Source of the DNA: Rhina ancylostomus
Lineage: Eukaryota
Assembly: GCA_030265395.1 (NCBI GenBank)
Contig: JARFYF010000118.1
Location: forward strand, 24,277,824 to 24,341,823
Direction of reading: 5' to 3'
Length of the DNA: 64,000 nucleotides
The notes below the pieces were generated by a model that ran no database searches, was not told the origin of the DNA, and worked only from the letters and a program-made list of their open reading frames with translations. Positions within the stretch are counted from its first letter, which is position 1; every line of letters begins with the position of its first letter. Both the position numbers and the translations under genes were made by a program. Positions 7,806 to 45,777 of the stretch are shown in pieces.

Positions 7806-7921
7806 AAAACATATGAAGTCTATGAAGTCCACTATAAGATTGTCCTCATCATCAACTACCTGGGTCACTCTGTCTCTACTGGAGTCCTAATAATTGCTTT
7901 TGTACTCTTCCTCTGTTTAAG
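7806..7921 (+). CDS. CRHR2: CRHR2-like exon, stalk/TM1: [38 protein letters not shown](R)
   Basis: Acceptor ttttatttcag, donor ag|gtatgt; 116 bp, phase 0 to 2; [13 protein letters not shown] motif. Confidence 0.93.
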
Positions 7922-10900
7922 GTATGTAACATTCACTGTGAACCTAACATTATTTTATTTGGTAACTAACAAAGTATGCTGGAATTTTGCCACTGGCCAA
8001 TCACCCTGATTTGACTGACTCAAAACATCATTGGAACATAGAACACAAATGTGCAAATTCAACTCATTCAGCATGTCTTGCTTTTTATTGTCTACTGTAA
8101 AATTCTCCCTTGCTTTCGCTGCATACATTAATGTTTTCATTTCTCATTCATAACCACCACTCCTCTAAGCAACTCAANNNNNNNNNNNNNNNNNNNNNNN
8201 NNNNNNNNNNNNNNNNNNNNNNNNNNNNNNNNNNNNNNNNNNNNNNNNNNNNNNNNNNNNNNNNNNNNNNNNNNNNNTCTAAGCAACTCAATTGATTCTG
8301 TATCCAAAGTTTTCTATGTTATTGCAAACCATATAACTCTGTGTGAAGATTGTCTTCTGGATTTATTTGTAACCGACTTAGTTGAACATATCAACCTTTG
8401 TTCCTTTATTCTTTATAACTCTACTGGAGAAAATAATCAACTTCTACTGAACTTGTCACTTAACTAATTCTGCAAAGATGTCCTTCTGAGACCTGGAAGA
8501 GGGTTTTCCGCACATTGGACAGAAGGAATCTCTTGTGTGATGGTAGCCATAAGCCTCATCCATGGTGATTAAGTGTACTCCTGCATCGTTTCATTCATGC
8601 ATTTTCTATTCTTGAGGGAAATGAGTTGCTGTGCAGTTATGAAATCTGACATTTCTAAATTGGTGTTATTCAGATACTAGCTGCATTCACGTGGCAAACT
8701 GAACCAAAGAACCTACTGAGAGAGACTGAACTGTTTCAACAAAGTGTTCACTGTGTAGTTGGACACAAACACGTAACTTCATGAATGTTGTCCTTCACTA
8801 TCATTACCCCAAACCCAAATGAGATGGATTCTTCTCTCATATTAACCCCAATGCAATTACAATCTGCACCATTACAATCTCTTTCTTATAATGTCCAGAA
8901 TGCCATTACAGCAGACACCTTTGGTGAAGACAGGTGTTAGCAATATAAGTAACCACTGCGGTGGTGTCCACTGCAATGTCATTGCTTTAAAGCAAATAAA
9001 TTGTGAAGGCTATTTTATTTAATTAGAAAAGCAAAAAGCTGCTGATGCTGGAAATCCAAAATATAAACACAAAGTGCTGGAGATACTTGGCAGCTCAGGC
9101 AGCATCTGTAGAGAGAGAAGTAGACTTAAAATTTCAGGTTGATAACGTGAATATACAAATTAGGAGCACCAGCCGGCCACTTGGCCCCTCAAATCTGCCA
9201 TCCAATAACATCATAGATTGTAATCTCAACTCCCACATTCCCATTCACCCATGATAGTTTTCACCCCTTCACCTATCAATGATCTATCTAGGAGACACAG
9301 AGGATCCACCTATCTCTGCCTTAATAATATTCAATAACTATGCTTCAACTGTTCTTTGAAGAAAAGTTCCAAAGACTCAAGCCAACCTAGAGAAAACAAT
9401 CTGCCTCCGTTTTATCTCCATTTTAAATATCCAAGCCATCACTATTAAATAGTGATTCCTATTATGGATTCTCTTAAGTGAAACCATCTTCCCTACATCA
9501 TCCTGTCAAAACCCTTCAGAATGTTATTTTTCAATCAAGTCACTCTACATATTTTCTGAACCTTAGCAGTCTGTCCAATATTTCCTCGGGACAACCTATC
9601 CATTCCATGTATTAGTCTAGTAAACCTTCTCTGAACTGATTCCAATGCATAAATGTCCTTGCTTGAATCAGGAAAACTAATATTGTCAGAGTACTCCAGA
9701 TGTTGTCCCATCAATGGTCCTTATATAATTGAAGTATATACTCCCTACTTTTGCATTCAGCTTCTCTGGCAATATACAATAGCGTTCTATTAGCTTTTGT
9801 AAGTACTTGTGGCGTCTGCTGTTGTAGCCTTTTGCAAATGATGCATTAGGAAACCCAGAAACCTCTACATCTCAGAGCTCCACAGTCTTTCATCTTTGTA
9901 TTTGTATTGCCATAATGGACAATGACACATTATCCCATGTTATTACATCATTTGCCATTCCATTGCCCTTTCACTTAGTCTATTCTTCAATCATTTGTAA
10001 CTTCCTCATGTCGTCTTCAGAACCTATTTTCATACCTTTTATTTTTGTCATTAGTAAACTTAGCACCCATGCCTTTGGTGCCTTTATCCAAGTCATTTTT
10101 ATAAATTGTAGAATGTTGAGGCCCCAGCAGTGATCCCTGTGGTACACCACTCATTACTTCTAGCCAAGCAGAAAAAGGACCCATCTATGATGCTCCTCTC
10201 TGCTTCATGTCAACCAGCCAACCTTCCATCTTCAGCAGTGTCTTATATTCTACACTATGAGCTTTTGTTTTAAGACATTTGGACAAAGTCCATCAAGACC
10301 TGGGAACTTGTCAACCCATAGCTCCAACAATTGCTGAGACTTTCCAGCATTTTCTGTTTTTATTTTATATTTGCAAATTGAAAATGGCCTGAGAACTTAA
10401 AAAACCTACCTCTCTGTGAGAGTTCACATCCAGTAGTTTAACTTACTATATCATCAATTTTATTTCCTTGAAGGTATAGTTTCCATTGTTTTGTAAACCT
10501 TTTTATAAATAACCATGCCTAGCCTTTACACCACATGTTTGAGGAAGCCTAGTACAATTTTAATTGATCAGTCTTTCTTTGTGTTGGCTGGAACAGGAGT
10601 ATTAGATGCCTTCGGAATATCATTCATTGGAATTTAATAACCACTTTCATTTTGAGGAATATTCTATGGTTCCTGATGCAAATGATTGATGAAGATATAC
10701 ATGAGAGAAATGAGGTAAGCTCTTGCAACATAGCTCAGATTGGTAAATGCCTGGCTAATGTGTAACTGGGTATTACAGGTTAGAATCTCTTTTGGCCCAT
10801 TGCTGTTCTGTACTGAGTTAGCAGATGGCAGCAAGGGTCACCAGTACAAATACCACAATTGTCCTTGGATTAGAAAAGAGAAAGGGTGATCTCTCAGGAT

Positions 10901-13900
10901 CCATGTCCTGTTTTCCTAGAATATCTTAAAATGCTTCTCTAGGGATATAAGTCAATTTCACTATCTATTGAAGTACAGGCCTCTGCAGGCCTGGAGAACA
11001 CCAGCCTCAGTTCCCCATTATACGTTGAGTTATTCGGTCTCAACCAGGGTACAGTGGGTGCATGCCAATGGATTAACAACATCCACAGCTTATTTCCTGG
11101 GCTTTCACACCATGTGTGTGTCCCTGTGTGTAAAATGAATTGTTTAATCTATTTTTCAGCCCTGGTGCCGTCTTGTCACAACAATCTACAACTACTTTGT
11201 GGTGACTAATTTCTTCTGGATGTTTGTTGAGGGGTGCTATCTCCATACAGCTATAGTGATGACCTACTCCACAGACAAAATGCGCAAGTGGAAATTTCTG
11301 TTCATTGGATGGTGTAAGTAAGGGATCTTTTGATGGTCTGATTGAGACACATAGATATAGTTGATGTAAGATAAACATGCTGTACACAGGAGCATGCACA
11401 TGTATTGTGGGCCAGATTAGGATTAATCCAGTTTATTGTTTGTACTCAGGCCCTGTGTTTGTTCTACAGATGCACTTACTTATCCTGCAGGTGGGCCATG
11501 TGGAAGGTCTCCATTCCACTGCCTATCTATGAAAGGGCAACCAGGCCTCAGTCAGTGGATCCTGAGCCCCTGCTCCCAGCACATTCCTAATAAATGAACT
11601 TCGAGGGACATTTAACTCAGTTGAAATGGATTATAAGTATAATTAAAAGTATGATTTAAAAGGTTTTTTTGAAAATTGCATTTAGTTAAAACATTGCATT
11701 ACAGTTAATTAATTTAAAATGTACATATATCAAACCAAACAAATCTTAGCTCAATGCACATTTTCAATGAAGATTGGTGACCCTATTCAAATAAATGGTC
11801 ACATTGTAAATCAGCCAAAGCTGGTGTAAAGTTGAAGAGCCACTCAGCTCAGCACATTCTAGAGCTGCTGCTGGATTCACTGGGCAGCAAAGCAGGAGGT
11901 CAAGAGTGATGATATTTCACTCCCAGTGTGCACCATACTTGCATGATGCAGTGGCAGATTAGGGGAGCTGAAGATGCACTGAAAAGCGGAGGGTCTGTGT
12001 GATGTTTCTCTGTGGAAACATTGCCCACTGTGAAATATGATCCAGCACTGTATATTGCAAAGTTTGCTGATAACATGCAGTTCTAAAATGTCACACTTAG
12101 TTCCAGTCACACCTTCCATGTCATACGTTGTTGTTAACAACAATTAACAATCTATCCTCTGTTCAGTATGCTATGTACAAGAATGTGGTATCAATTTACA
12201 GCTGAGATTCATTCTGTCAAAAACTGCTTGCATTCAGTTGAACTCAGAGGTATTTTTCTTCCATAGGTATCCCTTGTCCCATCATTGTAGCCTGGGTTAT
12301 AGGCAAACTTTATTATGAAAATGAAGAGTAAGTACTATACCAAGAAGTCAAGGGGATGTATGTGTTTTATTTTATGTGTTTTTCTTTTAATGCACAAAGG
12401 AAAAACCCGATGTTCTATTAAAACTCTCTTTTCAGAGACATGGATATTCTAGTTTTCCCATGTCTTGCCAAGTCTTAAAACAAGAGCTGGCTGACCAAAG
12501 AGAGATGAAAAGGACAATTAAAGTGGTAATAGCAACAGTGCAGATTTCAATTTAATTAGTTCCTTTAACTGGAAAAATATTTTAAGGTAAAGTACCTTTG
12601 GAAAGAGAACTGCAAGAGACAAGAACACACTTGGGAAGGTTTCAAAAGAGCAAAGAGTGAAGCTGTGCAGAGAATGTGTGAATAAAAAATACTGCTCCAG
12701 AGGTTGTGTCATTGTGGATGAGGATGAAGTGATAGATGTTGGGATTTGTAAGGATTTAAGGCACAGATTCCATTGATGCAACATGGTTCTCCACTTGCCT
12801 ACTAGCCTCTGCTTTCACAAGAAAATGCTTATTAATGCCTTAAATATTATTTGGAAAGACATGGGTGGAAGGTAAAATACTGAAATCCCCTATCCTGAAG
12901 TCCTTCTGTATTTATCATCTAAGTTTAGAAACATAACTAACTCCCACAATAGAAGAAAGTCTTTGTACATCATCACTACTTCCTTAACTGGAACTATATA
13001 ATCTGATTGAAAATTACCCTTTGTCCTTCCAAGAGCTCTGTATTTCCTCTGCTTCCCACCTTAGCATTGCCACGTGCAGCAGAAACCCTGTTTATGCACA
13101 TAAATCTACTGATCTTCTGATAAACTTATGGATGTAGGATTTTGGCACAGGAGAAGGAAAATTGATAACAAAAATTTAGATAGATATCCATTTAACAGTA
13201 GGAAGGAATTATTGCTTGCTTGCTTGCAACTCACAGGTCTTTTATGTTCTAAAGTATTTTGAGGTATTTTTGAAATGTAAGCATAATTGAATGTAAGCAT
13301 TATTGTCGCATAGGCAAATATAGTGGTCACTTTATCCACCTAAAGATACTGTGGGTACCATTGAGGACAACCCATGCCCATAGACCCATAACTAGCAAGG
13401 AATCGGAGCCTTCAGAAAAGGTGAGGAGGGTGGTGAACAAAGCATTGAATGATTTCAGATTTTAGATTCCTCTCCTTTGATGGTACAGGTGAAGAAGTTA
13501 ATGAATCCTGTGTTAAAATGGCAATTATTCATCAATGACTTGTGAAAGAATGACACACTTACTTAGTTTCTCAAACGTCTAACATAACAAAAAGATTAAA
13601 CTGAGGCATGATTATTTTTGGTTTCAAATCAAATAGTCAACACCATCCAAACCTTACTAAGATGTTAAAGACGCTTCAAGAAATCTGATTGGGATGGGAT
13701 CTTTCCAGTAAGATAGACCAAATATTAGAAAAAGGAAACAAATTGAAGATGTGATTTGATACTGTTTATTAAACAAGTGACAATTGGTTCTTCCATTGAG
13801 TTTTTTCTTTCTTCTGCAGTTTTCTTCCAGCTGCTTATTCTTACTTCCATGATATAGCACCCAGCTTCTTCCCACGTAAACCCAGATAAAGACTNNNNNN

Positions 13901-16900
13901 NNNNNTGACTGTGGTCATTATCACAAATATCCCTGCTCCTTATTCTCTTCCTGCCACGCCTACATGTGACCTTTCCAACAGGGACCAGAAGTAGCGTCCC
14001 TGGCTGATTTCTTTGCTGTTCAATCCAGATGTACCATAAGTCAAACATAACTAACTAACATTAGTTAACAGCACAGACCTTTATCTTCTGGCTCTGCATG
14101 GAAACTAGGTGATGCCTTTGCTAGTTATTAATGAGCTCTGCATAATGTTTATTTGCTATTGAGTAGCAACAGTGGCTTGTAACTGAGCCACCAACCATCA
14201 TTGTTAGATGGCGAAGAGGATTTATTTGAAGCACTTTTGCCGAATTAACAAAATGACTATAGAAATTCCCACTTCAAAATTAACAAGATAATTACATGAG
14301 TTATGGTACTAAATATAATTAACACCCTCTTCCCACTTTGCCTTCAACTTTGTGCCTTTTTTTAATATAAAATTGCTGCAATAACTCGGCTAAATAACTC
14401 AGATTGCCACCACAAGATTGCATTGGAACAAAGCCTAGTGGCAATTTACATGAGTCTTGATGTTTACAGATGTTGGTTTGGAGAAGTAGCGGGGCATCGT
14501 ATGGACTACATCGTTCAGGGCCCAGTGGTACTGGTACTGCTGGTAAGTGTGTGAATGCACTGGTGCCAATTTGATTGAATTATTGTTAATTAGGGGTATC
14601 ATCCCTTTGCATAGGGAAATCACTGGTCTGTTCCATGTGATTTGTTTTTGATTTGTAACCAAAATGAATTCTGGTTGGATTTGTATTCTGAAGCCTTGGT
14701 GCTTATCATGATGAGATATTAAGGGAACAGAGTCTTTTCACATGAGATAGACATGGCTGAGTTTCATCTAGAGATGTAAACCATGCCTCAAAGTTTGCAA
14801 ACACATGCTAATCCATTTGAATTTTGCTTGCATTTCATGGATCAGCTTATTAATATGACAAGGTACAGACTAGAAAACTAACATTTTGAGTAGAGTACAT
14901 GAGTAATTTGACTTTTTGCAGGTATAACTGCTTAGAGGTTCTGTAAAGCATGCATTGAGATTGGGTTAATACATTAGAACAGTGAGTGTTTTCCTTTGAC
15001 TGCAAGTTTCTGGGTGTTGCACAGTTTCATTCACAAATGTTCTTCTTCCAAGGCTGTGTTCAAGTGGCAGGCAAGATTCTTGCTCGATCTGCATATTTGG
15101 AGGAGGGAGGGGGGGGTGGGCAGCAGAACATATCATTTAAGTAGTTTGTTTGGGAGTGGGCCGGCTACGGATACTGGAGGAGACTGGGTAGCCAGAAGCA
15201 TCGGGGGGACAGGATACTGTCCGACCTGGACACTATCTTGTCCCCCCGGTTCAACCCCTTCCCACCTATGTCCATGATCTTTGTTTCTCTAGCATCGGGG
15301 AGGGTTGTATTTCAGCTATCTTCAGGGATGGGGTATCAGGGCCAGTGTCAGGGGAAGGGGATTTGGGAGGTCAGCACAATGACTGGTGTTAGTATCAATA
15401 ACATAAGAAAGGGGATTGTGAAAGGGTTACAGAATGGAGGGGTGTCAAGAGTAGGCAAAAAATTGGGGTCGTTAGGGTAGCCCATTCAGTGATGTGGGTG
15501 CAATGAGGACTTAGGCAGGTTTTTCATTTACCCGCAAATCTCCCTGACTAGCATTGTGGATTAAAGAACATTGCATGTGGAACCATCTTATCATTTGCAT
15601 CCCTGATGTGGAACTTGTGACTGATGACCAGAAGTACCCAGTCAAATTTCCCCACAGGTGTGATGATCTGCTTGTTCTGGGCTAAATTAATTTTTAATCA
15701 AAATAACATAAGGATGTCCAATCAAATTTCTAGGCAAACAAGGTTAGGGGAGAGGATCAATTTTACCAATTCCTTCCATGCAGATGCACTGCTGAGATTT
15801 ACCTTGTATTAGTTTTGGGTACATTAATTAACAGTGATTGATTGCTATGATTAATTAGTTCTAATAACATTGTACCATGTGACAACCAGAGTGATTGGAG
15901 GTGAAGGAGATAGCCCTTGGTTATTATTCTACTAGCAATTCTAAAATGTCTCTCCAATTCATTTATGTGTTAAAACATACCTCTGCTTCTCCATGCCAGT
16001 TTCAAGAGGATGCTTCAGTTAGAACTACATATGAATCTTGGTTTCTGTAAAGAAAAGGCCATCCCACTTAGGTCCCAATCCTTTAATCGATCTGGGTATA
16101 TCATCAGTGACAGAAACTCTCCAAGAAAGGTTTTAGTTATTACAGCAGTATAAAAGGTAGAATAGAACAAACCATTGAGTTAATGGAATGGAACAAAATG
16201 GTAATCTGTGCTTTATGTCAGTGCATGTTACAATGATGGACTTCATTTGTTGACATCACTGGCATGCATTGATTGATACCTTGGCCATCCAGGTGTTTAA
16301 TGAAGATTCACAGATAACGTAAAAAGAGTTCAAACTCAGTGCTTATGTTCTGAACTGCAATTCACTTTGACTTAAAAGGCAAGAGTCCTCATTGTTCCAA
16401 TTTTCTTTTACATGACGATAAATAAAATACTTGTGATTCCAGCATAATTTCTTTTAAATTCCATGCTTTTGGATTTAGTCAGTATTGAAACCTATTGACA
16501 ATAAAACTATCCAGATTAACTTTAGCGAATGGTTTACAGAAATTGTTGAGCCTGAATTACAATATGAATAGCAGAAACTGCATTTTCTTTAACATGTAAA
16601 ATATATTTAATTTGACAAATGTTATTTTAAGTTAGTGACTCATCAAGCCAAAGTGTTTCACTGAGATATTCTCAGCCAAATTTGACACCAAGTCACCTCA
16701 AGGCATTAGAACAGAGATTTGATTGAAAAAAAAATCAGTTTTAAAACTGACTGGGAGAAAAATATAGAGAAGTGAAAATCTAACGTGGAATTTCCAGAGC
16801 TCAGGTCTGAAGCAGTTGAAGGTATGGCCAGCTATCGATTGAGGAAAAAAGTGAATGACATTTGTGAAGGCACAATTTTAGAACTCTTTTCATTTAGCCA

Positions 16901-19900
16901 GCTACTAAATGTTAATTTGCATGAAGAGTGCCTTTAATAAATCTGATGGTAATGTAACTTGCAAGTAAGATCCCCTTCAGCATCAGCAATATTCAGTTTG
17001 TATGCATAGATGAAACAAAATAAACAAAGAGCAATTTGGTTGGACTTAAACTAATGCAGTTTATAGTTCTTGTCATCATTTCACTGAGTGGATAAGAGTC
17101 TATAGAGGGCTTCTAAACTGCAACTGGAGAATGACCACCAGAAAGCAAGCTGGGAACTTAGATTGAAAGAAAAGCCACACCAGGAAAAGTTATCTAAATT
17201 TACAAGTTCCTAAGGAATATCAATCAAATCCTAACAGGACAGAACTTATTGGGAGAGATCTCCCACACCAATGGCAATACTAATGCTGGAACTCAGCTGG
17301 GTACCTGTTTACAGGAGTTGCTGTTAACCTAAGTCAATGGTGGCTTCTTCCACACAAACTCTGGAGGATTCCTCATGGGTGGCCTGATCCTCTACAAGCC
17401 TCCCAGCTCACAGCTGGGGGAATCTGCCCACTTAGCATGTGCCAGGTTAAACCCGTTACAAGCACAGCAATCCCCATTCAAATGATTGGGAGACATTCAG
17501 CTTCCAAAAACACAGTAAGGAGTTGTGTTTTTATTACTGATCTAATTGTTTGAAAACAATTAAATGTGAATATACATTTAAGTTTGAACAAATTACCACG
17601 TTTAATACTGTAACAATATTTTAATTTTTTACATGCCCCAGGCATGAATGTTTATATACGCCAGAGACCTTCACACACATTGAGAGGCCCTGACAACACT
17701 GGCAGCCAGTGAGCCTGTGTTAGGGGTGGGGCCTCACCAGCTGTCACTGTTGTTCCTTGAGTCCAGTTGGTTACCTGTGCGTTACACCAAAGTACTGGGA
17801 ACCAGGCACTCAGTGGAAGACCATGCTGCAACAGCAATGTGCTGCAGGGGTCATTGATTTTGTGGCAATGGAGAATTAGCCCATCGTGGATGTTTTTGTC
17901 TTGTCCTTGAAAGCTATGCAATTATTGAAGCACTTTTAAATTGTTATCACTTTGAAAAATAGGCAAATGTGGCAGTAAACTTGGGAATAAATCACCTAAC
18001 AATTTGTAATTTAATGTTGGTTAGGGTATTGGTGGAGACACTACAGGAGACTCTGTGTCATGAGGTCTTTTAAATCCACATAGGGGAGGAGCCATAGCCA
18101 CAGTTTAATATCTCATCCAATAATCTAGAACACCAGCAGTGAAGCTCTCACCTAGTAATGCATTAATAACAGAAGTAAAGCTGAACACAGTTTAGTCTGA
18201 ACAGATTGCTTGAGGAGGTTACAAGTGTTAGAAAATCAACAGTGATAATTAACTTCCTAGTGAAAAAATGTGTTTCTATTACTGATTTGAACTTCACACT
18301 CAGTAAAATAGTACAAATCAAATGATTCCAGGTTTGATTTTTGGGCGAAAGTTTTACCCCTTTTACCACAAGAGGGTTGAAGCAGGACTTAAACTCTCAG
18401 TCCTGAGCCGGATCCATTTTGTGGGGTCAGAGCTCCCACCGGCAGGATGGAGCCCACTGCATCCATGGAGAGAGCACAAATTAAAGAAACTGTGCAACCA
18501 TGAAAATGAGAAGGATCCTATTGCCATTGCAACTGAGTTAATGCTGCATAAACTCAAAATTGAGTTTAGAGCCTTACTGATTTCTTTGCCCTCATGGGAC
18601 ATTATGGGGTTCTGTTAATAGGCAGTAAGACTTTGAGAGAACTGAACTTCAGATATTTGGTATTGTTTAGCAAGTTTAATGCTACTGACCAGCCATGCTC
18701 TTCAGAAAAATACTTAATGATGTCTTTACCAAATGACCAGAAGTTTGTAATTGGATTAGCCAACTTTTCAGATGTTCAGGGAATTTTATTTGCCCTGAAT
18801 GGCAGGCATCGCAAAGACAAGTAAAAGAAAAATGTTATTTTGGTATGCAACCAGGAATGATTTTCACAGTTCTACAAGACTCCAATCACCTATGATGAAC
18901 ACTACCCACCCTCTCCTCTCACTGCTGTATGCACTACTATTGGTAAAGTAGGTGATTTGAAATTTAGTGTTGTCTGTTGTAATGCCACCACTGCCGATAA
19001 TTTACTAAGTTTTTATTATATGAAGCCAGGACAATACCATTTTCCCCATGAAATAACATCACTAAATCATTTAGCAGTGAAGGATTTTAGGATGTCCTAA
19101 GATTATAATCAGGGAACTTTAGAATGCAAAAGGAATTTCAAAGAAAGCCTTTTTCATGTACTATAATTTACATTCTGTAATAGCGAGGTCTTAAATTCTT
19201 TCCAGTATAAGATGTACTCATGCCTCTTTGTTTTTTTGAACAGGTGAATTTTATCTTTCTCTTCAACATTGTGAGGATCCTGATGACAAAATTGAGGGCA
19301 TCAACCACATCTGAGACAATGCAGTATAGGTAAATGAATACAAACCATCCATTATATAGGTACTGAGCTTAAAATTATTCTGTGCTGACAAAATGAATCA
19401 TTAATAATTAGAATCACCATCTGTTTGTACTGATCAAAGTAAAAATCAAGGAGATCTCTGCTGAAACTGAATACATCCTTTTTCTAGCTCTCATAATCCA
19501 TCATATCTTTGCATGATACTTCCTTTCTCATGACATTAATAAATGTCCCAATCAATCTCTGTCCTTGAAAAGTTACTGCTTGTGATTTGACTGCTGTTTT
19601 TAAACCAACTGGTATAAAACATCAAATCTGGTGTCTACTTGTAACACTTTACCTTGTTCATTAACCACAGACATGAAACTTAGCCAAATGCCTTCTGAAA
19701 GTTCAGCTTTATAATGTCATCAAGTATATATTATAAATGTTCAAGGTGTGGGTTACTTTGTAAAGTTCTGTTCCCCAATCAAAGGCTCAAAAAAAAGTAA
19801 CATATCTATGTAACATGTCCAGCCATAGATTTTCATGTCATGTATTGGGTCGAGGGTTATTTTGCACTGTCCATGTTAAGGGGTGGATTACGATTTAGTT

Positions 19901-22900: not shown

Positions 22901-25900
22901 ACATTGACCTGGCTTTGACCTCTTTTTTAGTTGTGATGGGTATCAGACACTTACATCTTCAGTTTATAGAAAACATGTCCATAATGTCAGAACTGCAATT
23001 CATATTCAGTACTCAGCAGATTAACTTTAATGAAAAATATTCATGAGTCTAATGCTGTCAGTTTTAACACATGCTAGTCTGCAGCTGAATGAGCAAAATC
23101 ATAAGCTGAGTGACATTCAAAATTCACATGTCATAGTTTAGAATTAACTACCAAAATTTTAACTGAAAACTTATGATCTGGTAACCTCCACCTAACATTT
23201 TGAAGACACTAAATGTTTTAAGAGAGTGATCTGAACCAAAAAAGATATAGTTTCTACCACTGAGCTCCTAAAGTATTGCCTATTCATTCAATATTCAACT
23301 AACACACAATGAATTTTGGTTAAAATGGGTTTACTTTATACCTATTTATTTTCTAGACAATCTAAGTTGAGTGGATAGTTTCTCCTAACCCCCATGTAAT
23401 TCTTTGCGGAAGAGACAAGACAGAATTGGACTTGGTGATTTGTTCAGTTATCCTTCCCCTGAGATTCTCTACACAGGGAGATAGGGCATTTAAATCAGAA
23501 TTTCAACCAGCAATTTCCATTGAAAGAAGCTATTTGTTCCATCAAGTCTATGCAGGTTCTCAGAGCATTCTCATTAATCCCATTCCTCCTCTTATTTTCC
23601 TGTAATCTATTCTCTCACTTACCCATTACACCCTCCCCTCCCCTGCCCTTACAATTCTCCTACCACACCACTGTGCCACTCATATGTGGATGTAGAGAAA
23701 CTACAAGTTCATTCTGCCCATGTTTCACAGATGGAATGTGATTCCCTGCCTCTGCTGAGTTGCCAGCTTTGGCATGGTAATATAGGAAAATGCCTAACAT
23801 GATTCATAATGAATAGGTAACCATTTGAAAAGAGCAAGATTAGACTACTTAATTAAGAAGAAAAATAGCTGATCAGATTTGCTCTGTAGAGCATCCTGTT
23901 TTTGCATTGGAATGTGCTATAATAGTTATGATTCTCAGTAAAAAGGAACATGGGAGTTATACCCTTATTTTACGCTGCTCACATGGAACCACATATAGAA
24001 TGGTATTGCAATAATCTGCACCTAGTAAACTGATAGTGTCTTAGACCTGAAACCCTAACTCTGTTTCTCTTTCCACAGATGTTTCCTGGCTTGTTGAGTG
24101 TTTTCTGTTTCTATTTTTGTTTCAGATTCCTAATATCTGCATTTTTTTGATTTTCATAACCTAACTCTTCACTAGAGGTGGTGAACAGCCAGTTGCTGAT
24201 TTTAATACTGCATCATTGTTTCTTAATGCCTCACTTTTCAATGGACAGCGAGGGATTGGCTCTAAAGTGAAGCTCATCTTGTGAGAACTTTTTTAAAGGC
24301 ATCTATGGAAGCCCTTTAGACTAAACATGCTGAGATGCAGATCGTATAAAGCCCTGGACTTTATCATTACAATTTCTTCAGTCATTAAGACATTTTCTTC
24401 ATTTTTGGAGCATTGCTTGTATCTCTCTTTTGGCAAAAAAATGTATACAATCCTTGACTGCACCAGAGATTGATCTCCGCAATTCAATAATTCTGTTTTT
24501 TTCTCTTTAACCCTTCATGCAGAACAGTGCAGTCTGACTCCTCTCACTGAATTTTAACTCATTCAATCACCCAATCTCTGCTGGCTCATTGACATTAATC
24601 AACCATTGTAATATTTTCAAACCTGTTGATAATTTGTTCTGCTGCACATAAGATATCTTCTCAAACTATGCAGCCTAATTCTAAATTGCTAATCATTTCC
24701 CCTGCTCTCAAATCTTCCTTCATAGCAATTGAAAAATAAAAAAAAAATAACAGGTGCTGAAAATCTGAAATTAAAAAAATATAAATGCTGGAAACACTGA
24801 ACAGGTCAGACAGCCTCTGTGAAAAGAGAAACAAAGTTAGTGACTTGGGTACTTGTAGAGTGTTTCTGACATTTTCTGTTCTTATATCATCCTTCAGAGG
24901 CCACCATTCAGGCTTCAGCCCAGTTTTCTATCAGAAATCTTCTGATTCTGCTGCCTCTATCATCTCTTTCAAAAGTTTGGCGCTGTAAAACGTTACGCTA
25001 ACTGCTATACTACCGTGCCTGCTGTGATATGATTTATTGCATCTGACAGGCTCAGTGTAATTTATTCAGTTTCCCCCAGATATGATCACCAAAGTGTAAA
25101 CATTGCAAAGTTGTTCATGATTACAGGAGGTATGTCAATAGTGGTGTGGGTAAATGCCAAAATTTCCCAGCGAAATCAGATGCTTCTCTTCTACAGATGG
25201 AATCACACAGCTTGGCTCTGTTGTCGTGCCATGATCAGAAAGTACAGTACAGGAACCATTTACACCTCAACTGCAGCAGCAACATAGTGTAATTGACAGT
25301 CTTGTACATCCTCATTTGGTTCAAGCTAAAGCCTGTTCAGAAATATGTTTCATGATTAATGCAATAAGTTTCACCTTCGATGTTAATTAAAAAAAAGGTT
25401 CTCTCTCTTTTCACCATCTGTCCTACAGGAAGGCAGTGAAGGCAATTTTAGTTCTGTTACCCCTTCTCGGGATCACCTACATACTGTTCTTCATTGATCC
25501 AGGCAAAGATGACATCTCATATGTTGCTTTCCTCTACTTCAATTCATTTCTGCAGTCCTTTCAGGTGGGTAATCTGGCAAAATGGTCTGACATCTCATAA
25601 CCTGAGCCCAAATGCAATTTCTCACCTTCATTTGTGATTCAGATTGGATCTTTTCCTGAAGCATTGTGCAATTTAGATGCTTAGCTAAGAGTTATTATTA
25701 CAATATGCTTCAGAACTCAATCAAACACTCTTGTGTTTTACAGGGTTTCTTTGTGTCAGTGTTTTACTGCTTCCTGAATGGAGAGGTAAGTTGAATCTAT
25801 TCTCTTCGAAAACAATCTGGTTGGAGTATTGGGTATAAATAATTTTAAAGCAGTATCATGTTTTATTCTTTCTAATCATTAGTAACTAAGCAGGGAAGTT

Positions 25901-31900: not shown

Positions 31901-32930
31901 ACAGGCCATTTGGCCCAACTTGTCCACACTGACCAGTGGGTGCCCTTCCATGTTAATCCCATCTCCCAGCACTTGGACCATAGCCTTCTATGCCAAGTGC
32001 GCATCTGGAAATACTTCTTAAATGCTGTTGGCAACCCAGCTTCAACCTCTGTCTCAGGCTTAGTCAAGGATGTGTTGAGCATGCCCTTGAATCTTTTCCT
32101 CTGTCTACTTGGTAATCTCTTCCTGACAGAGCTCAGGAAAGAGTGCCTGTTTCATAAGTTTTGTCTCGGGCATGAGACCAATGTGACCTACCCAACAGAG
32201 CTGGCTGAGTGTAGATAAGGCCTCAGTTCTGGGAATGTTGGCCTGGGAGAGGACACTGACATTGGTCCACATATCCTTCCAGTGAATTTGGCGGATGTTG
32301 CAGAGACAGTGTTGGTGGTGTTTTTCCAGTGCTTTGAGATGCCAACTGAAGGTAATTCAGGTCTCTGAAATATGTAAGAGAGAAAGGATCACTGACAAGA
32401 ATCTTGTGCCGGCTTCAATGTCTTAATCTTAAAATACCTTTCTCCTCAATCAATGAAAGGCTATGCAAAAGAAGATGAACTTCTTTCTGTAATTACTGTG
32501 GTGAAGTTACCAGGCTCACTAAGTCCAATTATCAAGTGTGAAGAAGGATATGTTAAGACAGAATTCTCTGTGAAAGAAACTTGCAAGTGTGAAGAACATA
32601 AAACACAATAGTACAACTTCAGTTTTCCACCACAATACTTTGCCAAGACTGAAAATCGTGCAGTTTTTACATGAAATGCATTGATCTCCAAACCCGAATT
32701 GCCAATGTTCCTCTAAGGATCCAGTAACTGCTTTAGTATCTAAAGTATCAAATAGTGCTATCGTGGAAATGAAGCTGTCTGTTTGCTTTCAGGTGCGCAC
32801 TGCTGCTAGAAAGAGGTGGCATCGATGGCAAGACAACCACACTCTAAGAGTACGAGTTGCACGGGCTATGTCCATACCAACCTCACCTACAAGAATCAGC
32901 TTTCAGAGCATAAAACAAACAGGTGTCTGA
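7806..32930 (+). CDS. CRHR2: Corticotropin-releasing hormone receptor, CRHR2-like (class B1 GPCR), 5'-partial; join(7806..7921,10597..10714,11160..11313,12267..12327,14470..14542,19244..19329,25429..25564,25744..25785,32793..32930)
   Basis: Nine AG/GT-bounded exons with compatible phases give 924 nt (307 aa + TGA) with no internal stop: [24 protein letters not shown]...[21 protein letters not shown]...[22 protein letters not shown]...[12 protein letters not shown]...[17 protein letters not shown]...[27 protein letters not shown]2-type residues: NLITTF, YFVVTN, AIVMTY, YYENE, SFLQSFQ, NGEV. Family assignment is firm; 1:1 orthology to CRHR2 is not (see findings). Confidence 0.95.
9026..9150. 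mobile_element. Left arm of a Penelope-like palindromic element
   Basis: gatgctggaaatcc..tgctggagatact..ggcagcatctgtagagagaga; same family as 34762 and 54169. Confidence 0.6.
9155..10270 (-). mobile_element. CR1 LINE, 5'-truncated
   Basis: Reverse complement of the CR1 RT (gtaccacagggatcactgctggggcctca, VPQGSLLGP) through to the 3' tail. Confidence 0.8.
10597..10714 (+). CDS. CRHR2: CRHR2-like exon, ICL1/TM2: [39 protein letters not shown]
   Basis: aacag|g ... gag|gtaagc; 118 bp. The 39-residue length matches CRHR2 (the CRHR1 segment is one residue longer). H2.50b intact. Confidence 0.96.
11160..11313 (+). CDS. CRHR2: CRHR2-like exon, TM3/ICL2: [51 protein letters not shown]
   Basis: tttttcag| ... 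t|gtaagt; 154 bp; class B signature [13 protein letters not shown]. Confidence 0.97.
12267..12327 (+). CDS. CRHR2: CRHR2-like exon, TM4: (C)[19 protein letters not shown](E)
   Basis: ttcttccatag| ... ga|gtaagt; 61 bp, phase 1 to 2. Confidence 0.95.
14470..14542 (+). CDS. CRHR2: CRHR2-like exon, ECL2/TM5: [24 protein letters not shown]
   Basis: tttacag|a ... ctg|gtaagt; 73 bp; CWFG...DYIxQGP motif. Confidence 0.95.
17925..18165 (-). mobile_element. Deu-domain SINE (SacSINE1/AmnSINE-like), decayed
   Basis: Reverse strand ggatgagatattaaactg..tggatttaaaagacctcatgacac resembles the Deu core. Confidence 0.55.
19244..19329 (+). CDS. CRHR2: CRHR2-like exon, TM5/ICL3: [28 protein letters not shown](R)
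   Basis: tttttgaacag| ... ag|gtaaat; 86 bp. Confidence 0.97.
22035..22300 (+). mobile_element. Deu-domain SINE (SacSINE1/AmnSINE-like)
   Basis: ccagtgcagtactga..agatgagaaattaaactga..gaatgtaaaagatcccgtggc..gaagagcag. Related fragments at ~39470, ~52030, ~53930 and ~54890. Confidence 0.7.
24030..24155. mobile_element. Penelope-like element arm
   Basis: gacctgaaac..actctgtttctctttccacagatg..tcagattcc..atctgca; same family as 34762. Confidence 0.6.
25429..25564 (+). CDS. CRHR2: CRHR2-like exon, TM6/ECL3/TM7: [45 protein letters not shown]
   Basis: tcctacag|g ... cag|gtgggt; 136 bp; PxxG motif (PLLG). Confidence 0.97.
25744..25785 (+). CDS. CRHR2: CRHR2-like exon, TM7: [14 protein letters not shown]
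   Basis: ttttacag| ... gag|gtaagt; the 42-bp exon characteristic of class B1 GPCRs. Confidence 0.97.
26702..27285. mobile_element. Non-autonomous pogo/Tigger-like DNA transposon with an internal minisatellite
   Basis: Left end ta..agtaaaactctgataatc and right end gaattaatggagttttactg-ta are imperfect inverted repeats bounded by TA. Confidence 0.6.
27612..27950 (-). mobile_element. CR1 LINE 3' end
   Basis: Reverse complement reads agagtggttgatatctggaactcactgccagaagaggtggtg ([14 protein letters not shown]) plus tail. Confidence 0.8.
28165..28930 (+). mobile_element. CR1 LINE fragment
   Basis: [40 protein letters not shown] motifs. Confidence 0.75.
29576..29876 (-). mobile_element. Near full-length V-SINE
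   Basis: Reverse complement of the element at 30979-31273 over its whole length. Confidence 0.85.
30979..31273 (+). mobile_element. Near full-length V-SINE
   Basis: tRNA head with A-box-like tggtagtgtggcagttagc and B-box gggttcaattcc, V-domain gggtttcctctgggtgctccagtttcc, tail catgtgacaaataaagatatctt. Confidence 0.85.
31700..32420 (-). mobile_element. RTE LINE fragment interrupted by a CR1 3' tail (~31872-32060)
   Basis: Reverse strand resembles 340-660 (cccatggacctttgggaatctctagaccaaagtggcaaaggagcattc; RPKWQRSI). The inserted CR1 tail ends in ctatgactc repeats. Confidence 0.65.
32793..32930 (+). CDS. CRHR2: CRHR2-like last coding exon, helix 8/C-tail: [45 protein letters not shown]
   Basis: tttgctttcag| acceptor; [12 protein letters not shown] motif; TGA at 32928-32930. 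Confidence 0.97.
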
Positions 32931-43400: not shown

Positions 43401-43640
43401 GTGCTTTACATGCAATAGCATGAAGCTGATGCAATCCAGGGTTGTAGTGTCTGTGACCTCTGTTCCTCCGTGTGGCAAGTAACCCCTGAGGAGGACAAAA
43501 CATTCAGATGCTGCATTTTATGTAATGCAAACTTGGTTATTTTTAAATTTTAATTGCATCAAATTATATTTACACAAAGAAAATTGAGGTCTTAAAGATA
43601 AGGCTATTGATGTACTTACAATATTCATATTTTTTAACAG

Positions 43641-43923
43641 GTTACTATCCAGCTGCTGGGCAGTACCTGCCTCCAGGTCACTTTATCCCCCCTGGCCACT
43701 ACCCACCCCCGCCTGGGCACGATCCCCCTCATAGTGGACAAACGGCAACTGTTATAGTTCCTCCAGGTGCAGCAACAACAGTGACTGTACTGCAGGGGGA
43801 GATGTTTCAAGCTGCACCAGTGCAGATTGTGTGCCCTCATTGTCAGCAGGCTATCACAACCAAGATCACCTACGAGCTTGGCTTATTGAATACTTTATTC
43901 TGTCTCTTCTGCTGTTTTATGGG
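43641..43923 (+). CDS. CDIP1: CDIP1 (cell death-inducing p53 target 1, LITAF family) penultimate coding exon
   Basis: tttttaacag|gt ... gg|gtaagt; (G)[93 protein letters not shown](G). Matches the CDIP1-specific [12 protein letters not shown] and [12 protein letters not shown] motifs. Confidence 0.95.
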
Positions 43924-45777
43924 GTAAGTGACTTGTATTTGGGGGTTTTCAGGTCTCATTTTTAAGAATTCTTTTTCTTACAGCTGCAATCGCTTTTTTT
44001 GACCTCTCTTAATCTTATGGATTTTTTAAAACACATCTGCATACTTTTCATATTTTCTTCCATGTTGGCACTCTTGTTCTTTTGGAATGATATTAACTAT
44101 TCTGCAGCTCTCATTCTTTTTTGGTGTTCTGTTATCTTGCCTAATTTCCATATCTGTCTTGACTTGCCCAGATCATGTTCTGATATCTTCCTGACTACCC
44201 TGCTCTTCTACAAGTTATTTTCCCCTTTCTACTTGAATAGTAAACCTCAAGTGCTCACCCATATGGATAGATAAGCTATTTTATTTACTCTTTACAAAAA
44301 TAACTCTACCCATGTAGGAATAAGATAATCCTGCATAATTTATGAAATTAATAGAACGGAATTCCTCTGTTCCACCCAGAGTCAGTAGTAAAGTTCCTGG
44401 ATCAATTTTGTTATTTCTTGTCTCCTAGATTTGCAAAGTTTCTTCCCATAACTAGTATAATTCCAATAATGGAATAATTTCTTTGAAAGAACTAACACAT
44501 TAAATGATGGTCTCCTGTGCTGTAAGATACTAGCATTAATCTTTCACTGAATTGACTTTTGCTGATGCATACAAAGTTAGTCAATCTTCACAGCATGTTT
44601 TACCTCACTATTTTGCCACTTAACCACACAGTATTCCATTCTTGTGAAAGGAAAAAAAAGTTTGTACACTTTCTGTCCTAGTGTTGCCAAATTTCAGTTC
44701 ATATTGTTCTATTTCTGTGAAAGAATTCCTTCTAGCTTTTTCCCTACACAGTATTCCAATGCATTTAATTTTTCCATGTCCATACAGTCCATTTCATGTT
44801 AAATCTTGCCTTGTGTACTCCCCTTTTTGTGTATGTTGTGTCCACCTCTTTTTTTTTGCTCTGTATCCTACTGAATAATTTTGAAGGTAACTTAATTGTT
44901 TTCTTTCAATACTGAGTTTTGAGTTTGAATTATTTTCTCAGCAAATGTTGTTGCTCATTCTTGCACTTCCACTCCTTTTTAACTAATTACTTGAGGGTTT
45001 GTAACAAAATGTAGAAATACTGATTATTAAGTTATTTTTATAAATTACTTTTTTCATTTATTCTGATTCCAGGGCCAACTTTCTAATATTATAAAGTCCT
45101 TTATTAATAAAGTGGTTTCTCTCAGGATCTCATCAAAATGTTTTGATAGAAATTATGTCAGGATGTGACCTAGTGTTATTTAAACTGGATCTTTGTTTTA
45201 GCATGTTGTAGTATTTAAGTTTTTGAAAAATAAGTGAAATTCAGCAAAACAGTTTTGGACTTGAGGGAAAATAATCTTGCATTATCATAAACTTTTTTTT
45301 CTTACTGCTGAGCACACCTACAGACCCTCAAATTCAACTGCATTAATTGACAGTGATTTCATGATCTGAACATGAAGCAAAGTGTATAATATTCTGATTA
45401 TGCCAGATTCTGGAACAGGTTTCATAAGGCATACTTTGTAATTTGGAATGATTGTCTTGGTTCAGTAATGTCTTTATTTCTTGGCAGGGATTGGGGAAGG
45501 ATAAAGCACATTCAATAACTATTCTGATTTGTGGTTGTGACTTTTCCTGGTGAATAAATCAAAGTGATAATCTGATGATTTGACAAGAGTGTAATTGTTT
45601 TGCTCAGGCACTGAAGTCTTAAATTCTAAGGGTGTGAGCATAATTGATGCCATTGATGAAGACCCTTCACTTTTCCAATACATTTTTTATATACTACTAT
45701 TTGTGTAATGTACAATAATTGTCATTGATGTAAAGCTGTAGTAAACTTCAATTTCTTTTTCTTTTGTTTTGATCCAG

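Follow-up and report, generated by a model that had tools for sequence, protein, structure and literature searches.

Most substitutions at residue 410 of the class B1 receptor PTH1R raise basal cAMP, and at the equivalent site of VPAC1 some substitutions, Phe among them, do not cause activation. The position concerned, 6.42b, belongs to the HETx polar lock, which in the inactive state comprises a water bridge between E3.50 and T6.42 together with a polar contact from Y7.57; the PTH1R mutant T410P is constitutively active, and HETx mutants of GCGR, VPAC1R and CRF1R behave likewise (accessible parts of PMC10166269). According to the excerpts available from three further papers, T351A confers high basal activity on GCGR (PMC7355025), and T410R in PTH1R is weaker than T410P (PMC4814114) and also weaker than H223R (PMC12167993). 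Neither a Thr-to-Ile mutant at 6.42 nor a 6.42 mutant of CRF2R was found in the literature examined, which was partly available as excerpts. Here we describe a CRH receptor of the batoid Rhina ancylostomus that carries Ile at this position. A sequence-only reading of the DNA had invoked the Jansen precedent, and T410 of PTH1R is indeed at the same site.

An intact CRHR2 gene with Ile at position 6.42b

The window, by which we mean the whole stretch of 64,000 nucleotides that was analysed, holds nine exons of the gene on the plus strand, from 7806 to 32930, with AG/GT at every internal junction, an open frame and a single terminal stop. The first of these coding exons (7806..7921) encodes the stalk and TM1 and is followed by those for ICL1-TM2-ECL1 (10597..10714), TM3-ICL2 (11160..11313), TM4 (12267..12327), ECL2 with the top of TM5 (14470..14542), TM5-ICL3 (19244..19329), TM6-ECL3-TM7 (25429..25564, 136 bases) and the end of TM7 (25744..25785); the last coding exon (32793..32930) covers helix 8, the C-tail and the stop codon. 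Exons for the ectodomain precede these; they are found on the same contig, upstream of the window, and match Pristis residues 1-108 (97% alike), showing that the hormone-binding ectodomain is present. About 11 kb past the CRHR2 stop, a frame at 43547..43924 (+) matched a LITAF-like zinc ribbon (E 1.2e-8).

The gene is an intact CRH receptor 2 (CRHR2/CRF2R, a class B1 GPCR) of a batoid. The secretin-family 7TM domain PF00002 (7tm_2) was matched on all three exon stretches tested, the best match among solved structures was CRF2R, and only 2 of 307 residues differ from the CRHR2 of Pristis pectinata. In a midpoint-rooted tree of 43 rows, hand-picked with one row per species, the nine batoid rows clustered together (100/100) among the CRHR2 rows (99/96), and the CRHR1 rows made up a separate side; the batoid stem had a length of 0.18 changes per column. 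With vertebrate CRHR2 the receptor thus shares the domain, the structural match, the tree placement, the Val in the TM3 motif, H2.50b, E3.50b, Y7.57b and the PxxG motif, but it differs in Ile6.42b and in changes at about 5.39b and in ICL2, ECL2 and ECL3. Among the annotated CRHR2 isoforms of several batoids, two alternative N-termini occur.

The Ile codon is ATT at 25445..25447 (+), in frame within the TM6 exon, and the residue sits five positions ahead of the Pro (25460) in PLLG, as the sequence-only reading had numbered it. That reading had also taken the remaining lock residues to be intact, which the codons confirm: H2.50b is CAT at 10625, E3.50b is GAG at 11229 and Y7.57b is TAC at 25765. 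In the solved human CRF1R and CRF2R chains the aligned residue is Thr. The canonical HETx lock with Thr at 6.42b is therefore not present in this receptor, which has Ile in a setting where His, Glu and Tyr are retained, and a substitution at 2.50b or 6.42b is what characterizes the Jansen type. When the batoid rows were compared with the other CRH receptor rows, the remaining lock positions and the PxxG motif showed no change confined to batoids. The lock position is the same as in the Jansen mutants T410P and T410R of PTH1R and in GCGR T351A, where the other lock residues are likewise intact; unlike in those mutants, the batoid residue is a species-wide wild-type residue and is neither Pro nor Arg nor Ala. 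Contigs of all four sequencing runs compared, from four coded organisms, had no alternative letter at 25445-25447, the best-matching run possibly being the window's own source, and the four exonic differences listed in the comparison of run contigs were all synonymous.

Position 6.42b and other batoid changes across receptors

For a survey of the residue, 457 stored proteins were used, of which 429 aligned over 6.42b with Pro at 6.47b and 28 were dropped; the resulting counts include isoforms and the sequences are not independent. All 21 batoid CRHR2 proteins had Ile. They come from eight named species (Pristis, Leucoraja, Rhinoraja, Narcine, two Mobula, Hypanus and Hemitrygon), which we take to cover together all four batoid orders. 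Other vertebrate-type CRH receptor sequences (at least 60% identity) had Thr in 279 of 282 cases, the exceptions being a lungfish CRHR1 record with Ile, a jerboa record with Ala and one gap. The lungfish entry (P0116, Protopterus annectens CRHR1-like) is a single record that may represent an independent change or an error, and the jerboa entry (P0204, Jaculus jaculus CRHR2) is a single record as well. Thr was also present in the CRHR2 of Mustelus, in CRHR1 of sharks and chimaera and in the lamprey. Since Ile occurs in all batoids seen and Thr in shark, chimaera and lamprey, the change likely dates to the batoid stem, with Mustelus, the sole shark CRHR2 found as outgroup, providing the only close reference.

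Further away, Thr6.42b was missing from 60 of 126 distant relatives (Leu in 32, Ala in 16, Ile in 6, Met in 3, Val in 2 and Ser in 1), so that 59 of the 126 have a non-polar residue there; examples are the insect diuretic hormone receptors (Leu, two clusters), Lingula (Ile) and amphioxus and Styela (Ala). The batoid receptor resembles arthropod DH44 and other invertebrate CRH-type receptors in combining a non-polar 6.42b with the conserved His, Glu and Tyr. It differs from the invertebrate receptors in that they are only 36-44% identical to the batoid protein and in that the batoid Ile was derived from Thr inside the vertebrates.

The substitution in the lock is accompanied by others. In the 43-row alignment there were 14 columns in which a residue shared by 80% or more of the other rows is missing from the batoids. 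Counted over all stored sequences, batoids have Val or Ile near 5.39b where 240 of 249 others have Tyr, Met at an ICL2 position that is Leu in 241 of 242, Lys at an ECL3 position that is Glu in 270 of 283, and Glu, Ile or Thr at an ECL2 position that is Lys in 235 of 248. In the window the corresponding changes are Tyr to Val at 14513, Leu to Met at 11280, Glu to Lys at 25505 and Lys to Glu at 14483. The last of these positions equals K258 of the human receptor by a five-residue offset, which was also used for mapping L222, and human CRF2R K258 contacts the urocortin N-terminus (PMC9637140, in the part available). The fixed changes in ECL2, in ECL3 and at about 5.39b therefore indicate, at the level of sequence, that the peptide-facing side of batoid CRHR2 has been remodelled along with the lock. 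Within the stingray group (Mobula, Hypanus and Hemitrygon; P0122-P0132), CRHR2 shows further ECL2 and ECL3 changes.

Possible effects of Ile6.42b on signalling

Ile has no hydroxyl group and would be unable to bond to E3.50b through water or to make polar contact with Y7.57b. From the inability of Ile to form the bonds of Thr in a lock that is otherwise unchanged we infer a weakened inactive state; batoid CRHR2 would then show modest cAMP signalling at rest and be switched on at a lower threshold, and would remain peptide-gated. We consider the chances evenly balanced that Ile6.42b loosens the receptor in this manner, with a modest tone, a lower threshold and a likely dependence on peptide. 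That basal tone or potency is measurably raised is about as likely as not, and the prediction of raised basal cAMP for the batoid receptor could go either way. The sequence-only reading, which had suggested raised basal Gs activity, took no account of the non-polar residues frequent at 6.42b among invertebrate receptors of this branch, of the occurrence of the change throughout the batoids examined, or of the apparent lack of CRHR1 and the altered CRH1-like peptide that accompany it.

The strongest competing explanation is a functionally silent Ile: the beta-branched side chain could pack on TM3 and TM7 and hold the inactive state by hydrophobic contacts, a role that Leu may have in the DH44 receptors of insects, and it could have been fixed in the course of faster batoid evolution. 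In flies, the DH44 receptors are reported to be activated by peptide (PMC3961327, as far as accessible). A silent exchange would fit the frequency of non-polar residues among the distant relatives, the Ile in the lungfish CRHR1 record and the long batoid stem, on which about a dozen other fixed changes mean that no special cause is needed. However, the near-complete retention of Thr by the other vertebrate-type sequences speaks for strong constraint in an unchanged lock background, and GCGR is activated even by an exchange of Thr to Ala; we therefore regard silence as a real possibility, if not the favoured one.

The identity of the position with PTH1R T410, and the alteration in batoids of pocket residues that are near-invariant elsewhere, might be taken to indicate a strongly constitutive receptor that, like the Jansen forms of PTH1R, signals mostly without peptide. 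This is improbable, as the ectodomain exons are intact and close to those of Pristis, four ligand genes have open frames and the residues found in Jansen receptors are Pro and Arg, not Ile. We consider it quite unlikely that the main effect concerns stability, surface expression or G-protein bias rather than basal Gs activity. Mutations in polar networks on the cytoplasmic side often reduce surface expression (PMC5063953), and both K258, which is lost in batoids, and L222, which is changed in them, matter in the human receptor, where Ala at K258 reduces coupling to G11 and Go without reducing that to Gs, and Ala at L222 lowers the Gs Emax (PMC9637140; available parts of both sources); these mutants, though, are Ala exchanges in the human protein and not Ile at 6.42b. 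Finally, a sequencing error, private allele or pseudogene, a worry raised at the outset because a single base separates ATT from ACT, is virtually ruled out by the Ile of all 21 batoid proteins from eight species, the identical codon in the four runs, the open CRHR2 frame and the synonymous nature of the exonic differences, and Ile6.42b is real, neither an error nor a private allele.

Ligands, CRHR1 and the batoid stress axis

Our preferred reading, a receptor loosened by Ile6.42b and still gated by peptide, is set in a genome with four CRF-family peptide genes with open frames. One of these loci is urocortin 3, and two others resemble what we take to be urotensin I/UCN1 and CRH2. A CRH1-like precursor is encoded at locus L004 on the minus strand (L004:1495-1989, on contig G000:C119). 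Its nearest Atlas cluster is corticoliberin (0.96), its best solved match is human CRH, and its frame of 165 residues corresponds to the 498 nt entry for little skate crh1 (PMC9353778), which makes it a likely CRH1 orthologue by sequence. In its neighbourhood, none of 67 candidate frames matched Pfam, and a COS search gave two matches, both on other contigs.

The mature L004 peptide has 41 residues with Val10-Pro11 and a urocortin 3-like N-terminal half: compared with urocortin 3 of the same genome, 11 of 17 residues match between 7 and 23, versus 4 of 18 between 24 and 41. Pro11 is described as confined to the CRHR2-selective urocortins (PMC6778379, accessible part). The peptide is thus like urocortin 2/3 in Pro11 and in residues 7-23, but unlike them in its length of 41 residues, in having Lys35 and Asp39 where these urocortins have Ala, and in its nearest cluster, corticoliberin. 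A tandem copy, 81% identical, lies 11 kb away (L077, G000:C119:38605868-38606269); it is truncated shortly past peptide residue 18 and has the same Val10-Pro11 motif. The copy number of the CRH1-like gene was two in all four other runs as well. As CRH1 is reported to be strongly conserved, the Pro11 shift would be batoid-specific; the source of that report lists batoid crh1, and no remark on its peptide was found in the part available (PMC9353778).

Genome searches with the TM6 exon and with chimaera and whale shark CRHR1 returned CRH-receptor exons at the CRHR2 locus only, and the same searches did recover much more distant class B1 exons. A second contig that matched the TM7 exon and might have held CRHR1 was rejected, being a different class B1 exon, presumably of VIPR/SCTR type, on contig C84. 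A 35-base degenerate TM3 pattern, whose motif is present in each of the 19 proteins examined (CRHR1, lamprey and shark), had one match in the genome at up to two mismatches, at the CRHR2 gene itself. Batoid CRHR1 was absent among the best 120 of 191, 706 and 621 matches in three protein searches, and no batoid was among the 15 members listed of a shark CRHR1 cluster of 26; under random listing, batoids would escape notice with a chance of 0.026 if four were hidden and of 0.44 if one was. In sharks, a 158 aa Heterodontus fragment named 'CRHR2-like' (P0067) is more like shark CRHR1 in TM4-ECL2 and lies on a different contig from the Heterodontus CRHR1.

Two 400 kb stretches of contig C58 (26.89-27.29 and 31.72-32.12 Mb), chosen by what we take to be the mammal and bird gene order, contained no CRHR1 remnant that we could find, and PTH3R-type exons were detected there as a positive control; with 93,220 and 47,701 N per 400,000 bases, this is a weak test. 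Beside an ARF-type gene, 1 of 146 candidate frames (146 of 441 candidates) matched Pfam, namely ARF itself. The order at 31.78-32.12 Mb of C58 was PTH3R-type, DEAD-box helicase, EF-hand gene and MAPT-type; next to the last of these no PEHE-domain gene was detected, and one adjoins a tubulin-binding gene on contig C118, the names of these neighbours on C58 and C118 being our assumption. The assembly consists of 65,984 contigs with many gaps, the genome search scores the best candidates only, and the low count returned by the COS search indicates that genome family searches can miss members. Judged from this gapped assembly, CRHR1 has probably been lost from the genome of Rhina ancylostomus, and with somewhat less confidence the same may be said of all batoids. 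In apparently having no CRHR1 partner, the CRHR2 of this ray departs from the usual vertebrate situation.

Given the failure to find CRHR1 and the shift of the likely CRH1 peptide to the pattern of the CRHR2-selective urocortins, CRHR2 would apparently be the only CRH receptor left, with Ile6.42b as part of its retuning. In jawed vertebrates other than batoids, it is CRHR1 that drives the stress axis; CRHR2 would have taken over this role, and the CRH1-like peptide would have adapted to the retuned receptor. On sequence grounds, CRH signalling in rays likely depends on a single CRHR2 that has been retuned to a lower threshold and is still ligand-gated. The fuller scenario, that batoids lost CRHR1 and rebuilt the stress axis on CRHR2, with the lock broken, the pocket remodelled and CRH1 converged on the Pro11 of urocortin 3, is tentative and on present evidence rather doubtful. 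A literature search in a collection with few of the subscription endocrinology journals gave no earlier report of a batoid 6.42b substitution or of batoid CRHR1 loss.

Thr6.42b is viewed as a conserved lock whose loss means disease in PTH1R, and here a whole vertebrate group lacks it in a wild-type receptor. With batoid Ile6.42b, a single mutation would suffice to test how widely the lock applies and how its loss can be tolerated. If the loss of CRHR1 is genuine, batoids would count as jawed vertebrates with a single CRH receptor; this would have a bearing on how cartilaginous fishes control their stress axis, a poorly understood matter, and provide a testable case of receptor-ligand co-evolution. 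Should the fuller scenario hold, batoid CRHR2 would represent a class B1 receptor that is naturally, and throughout a lineage, partly self-active and whose hormone has co-evolved with it.
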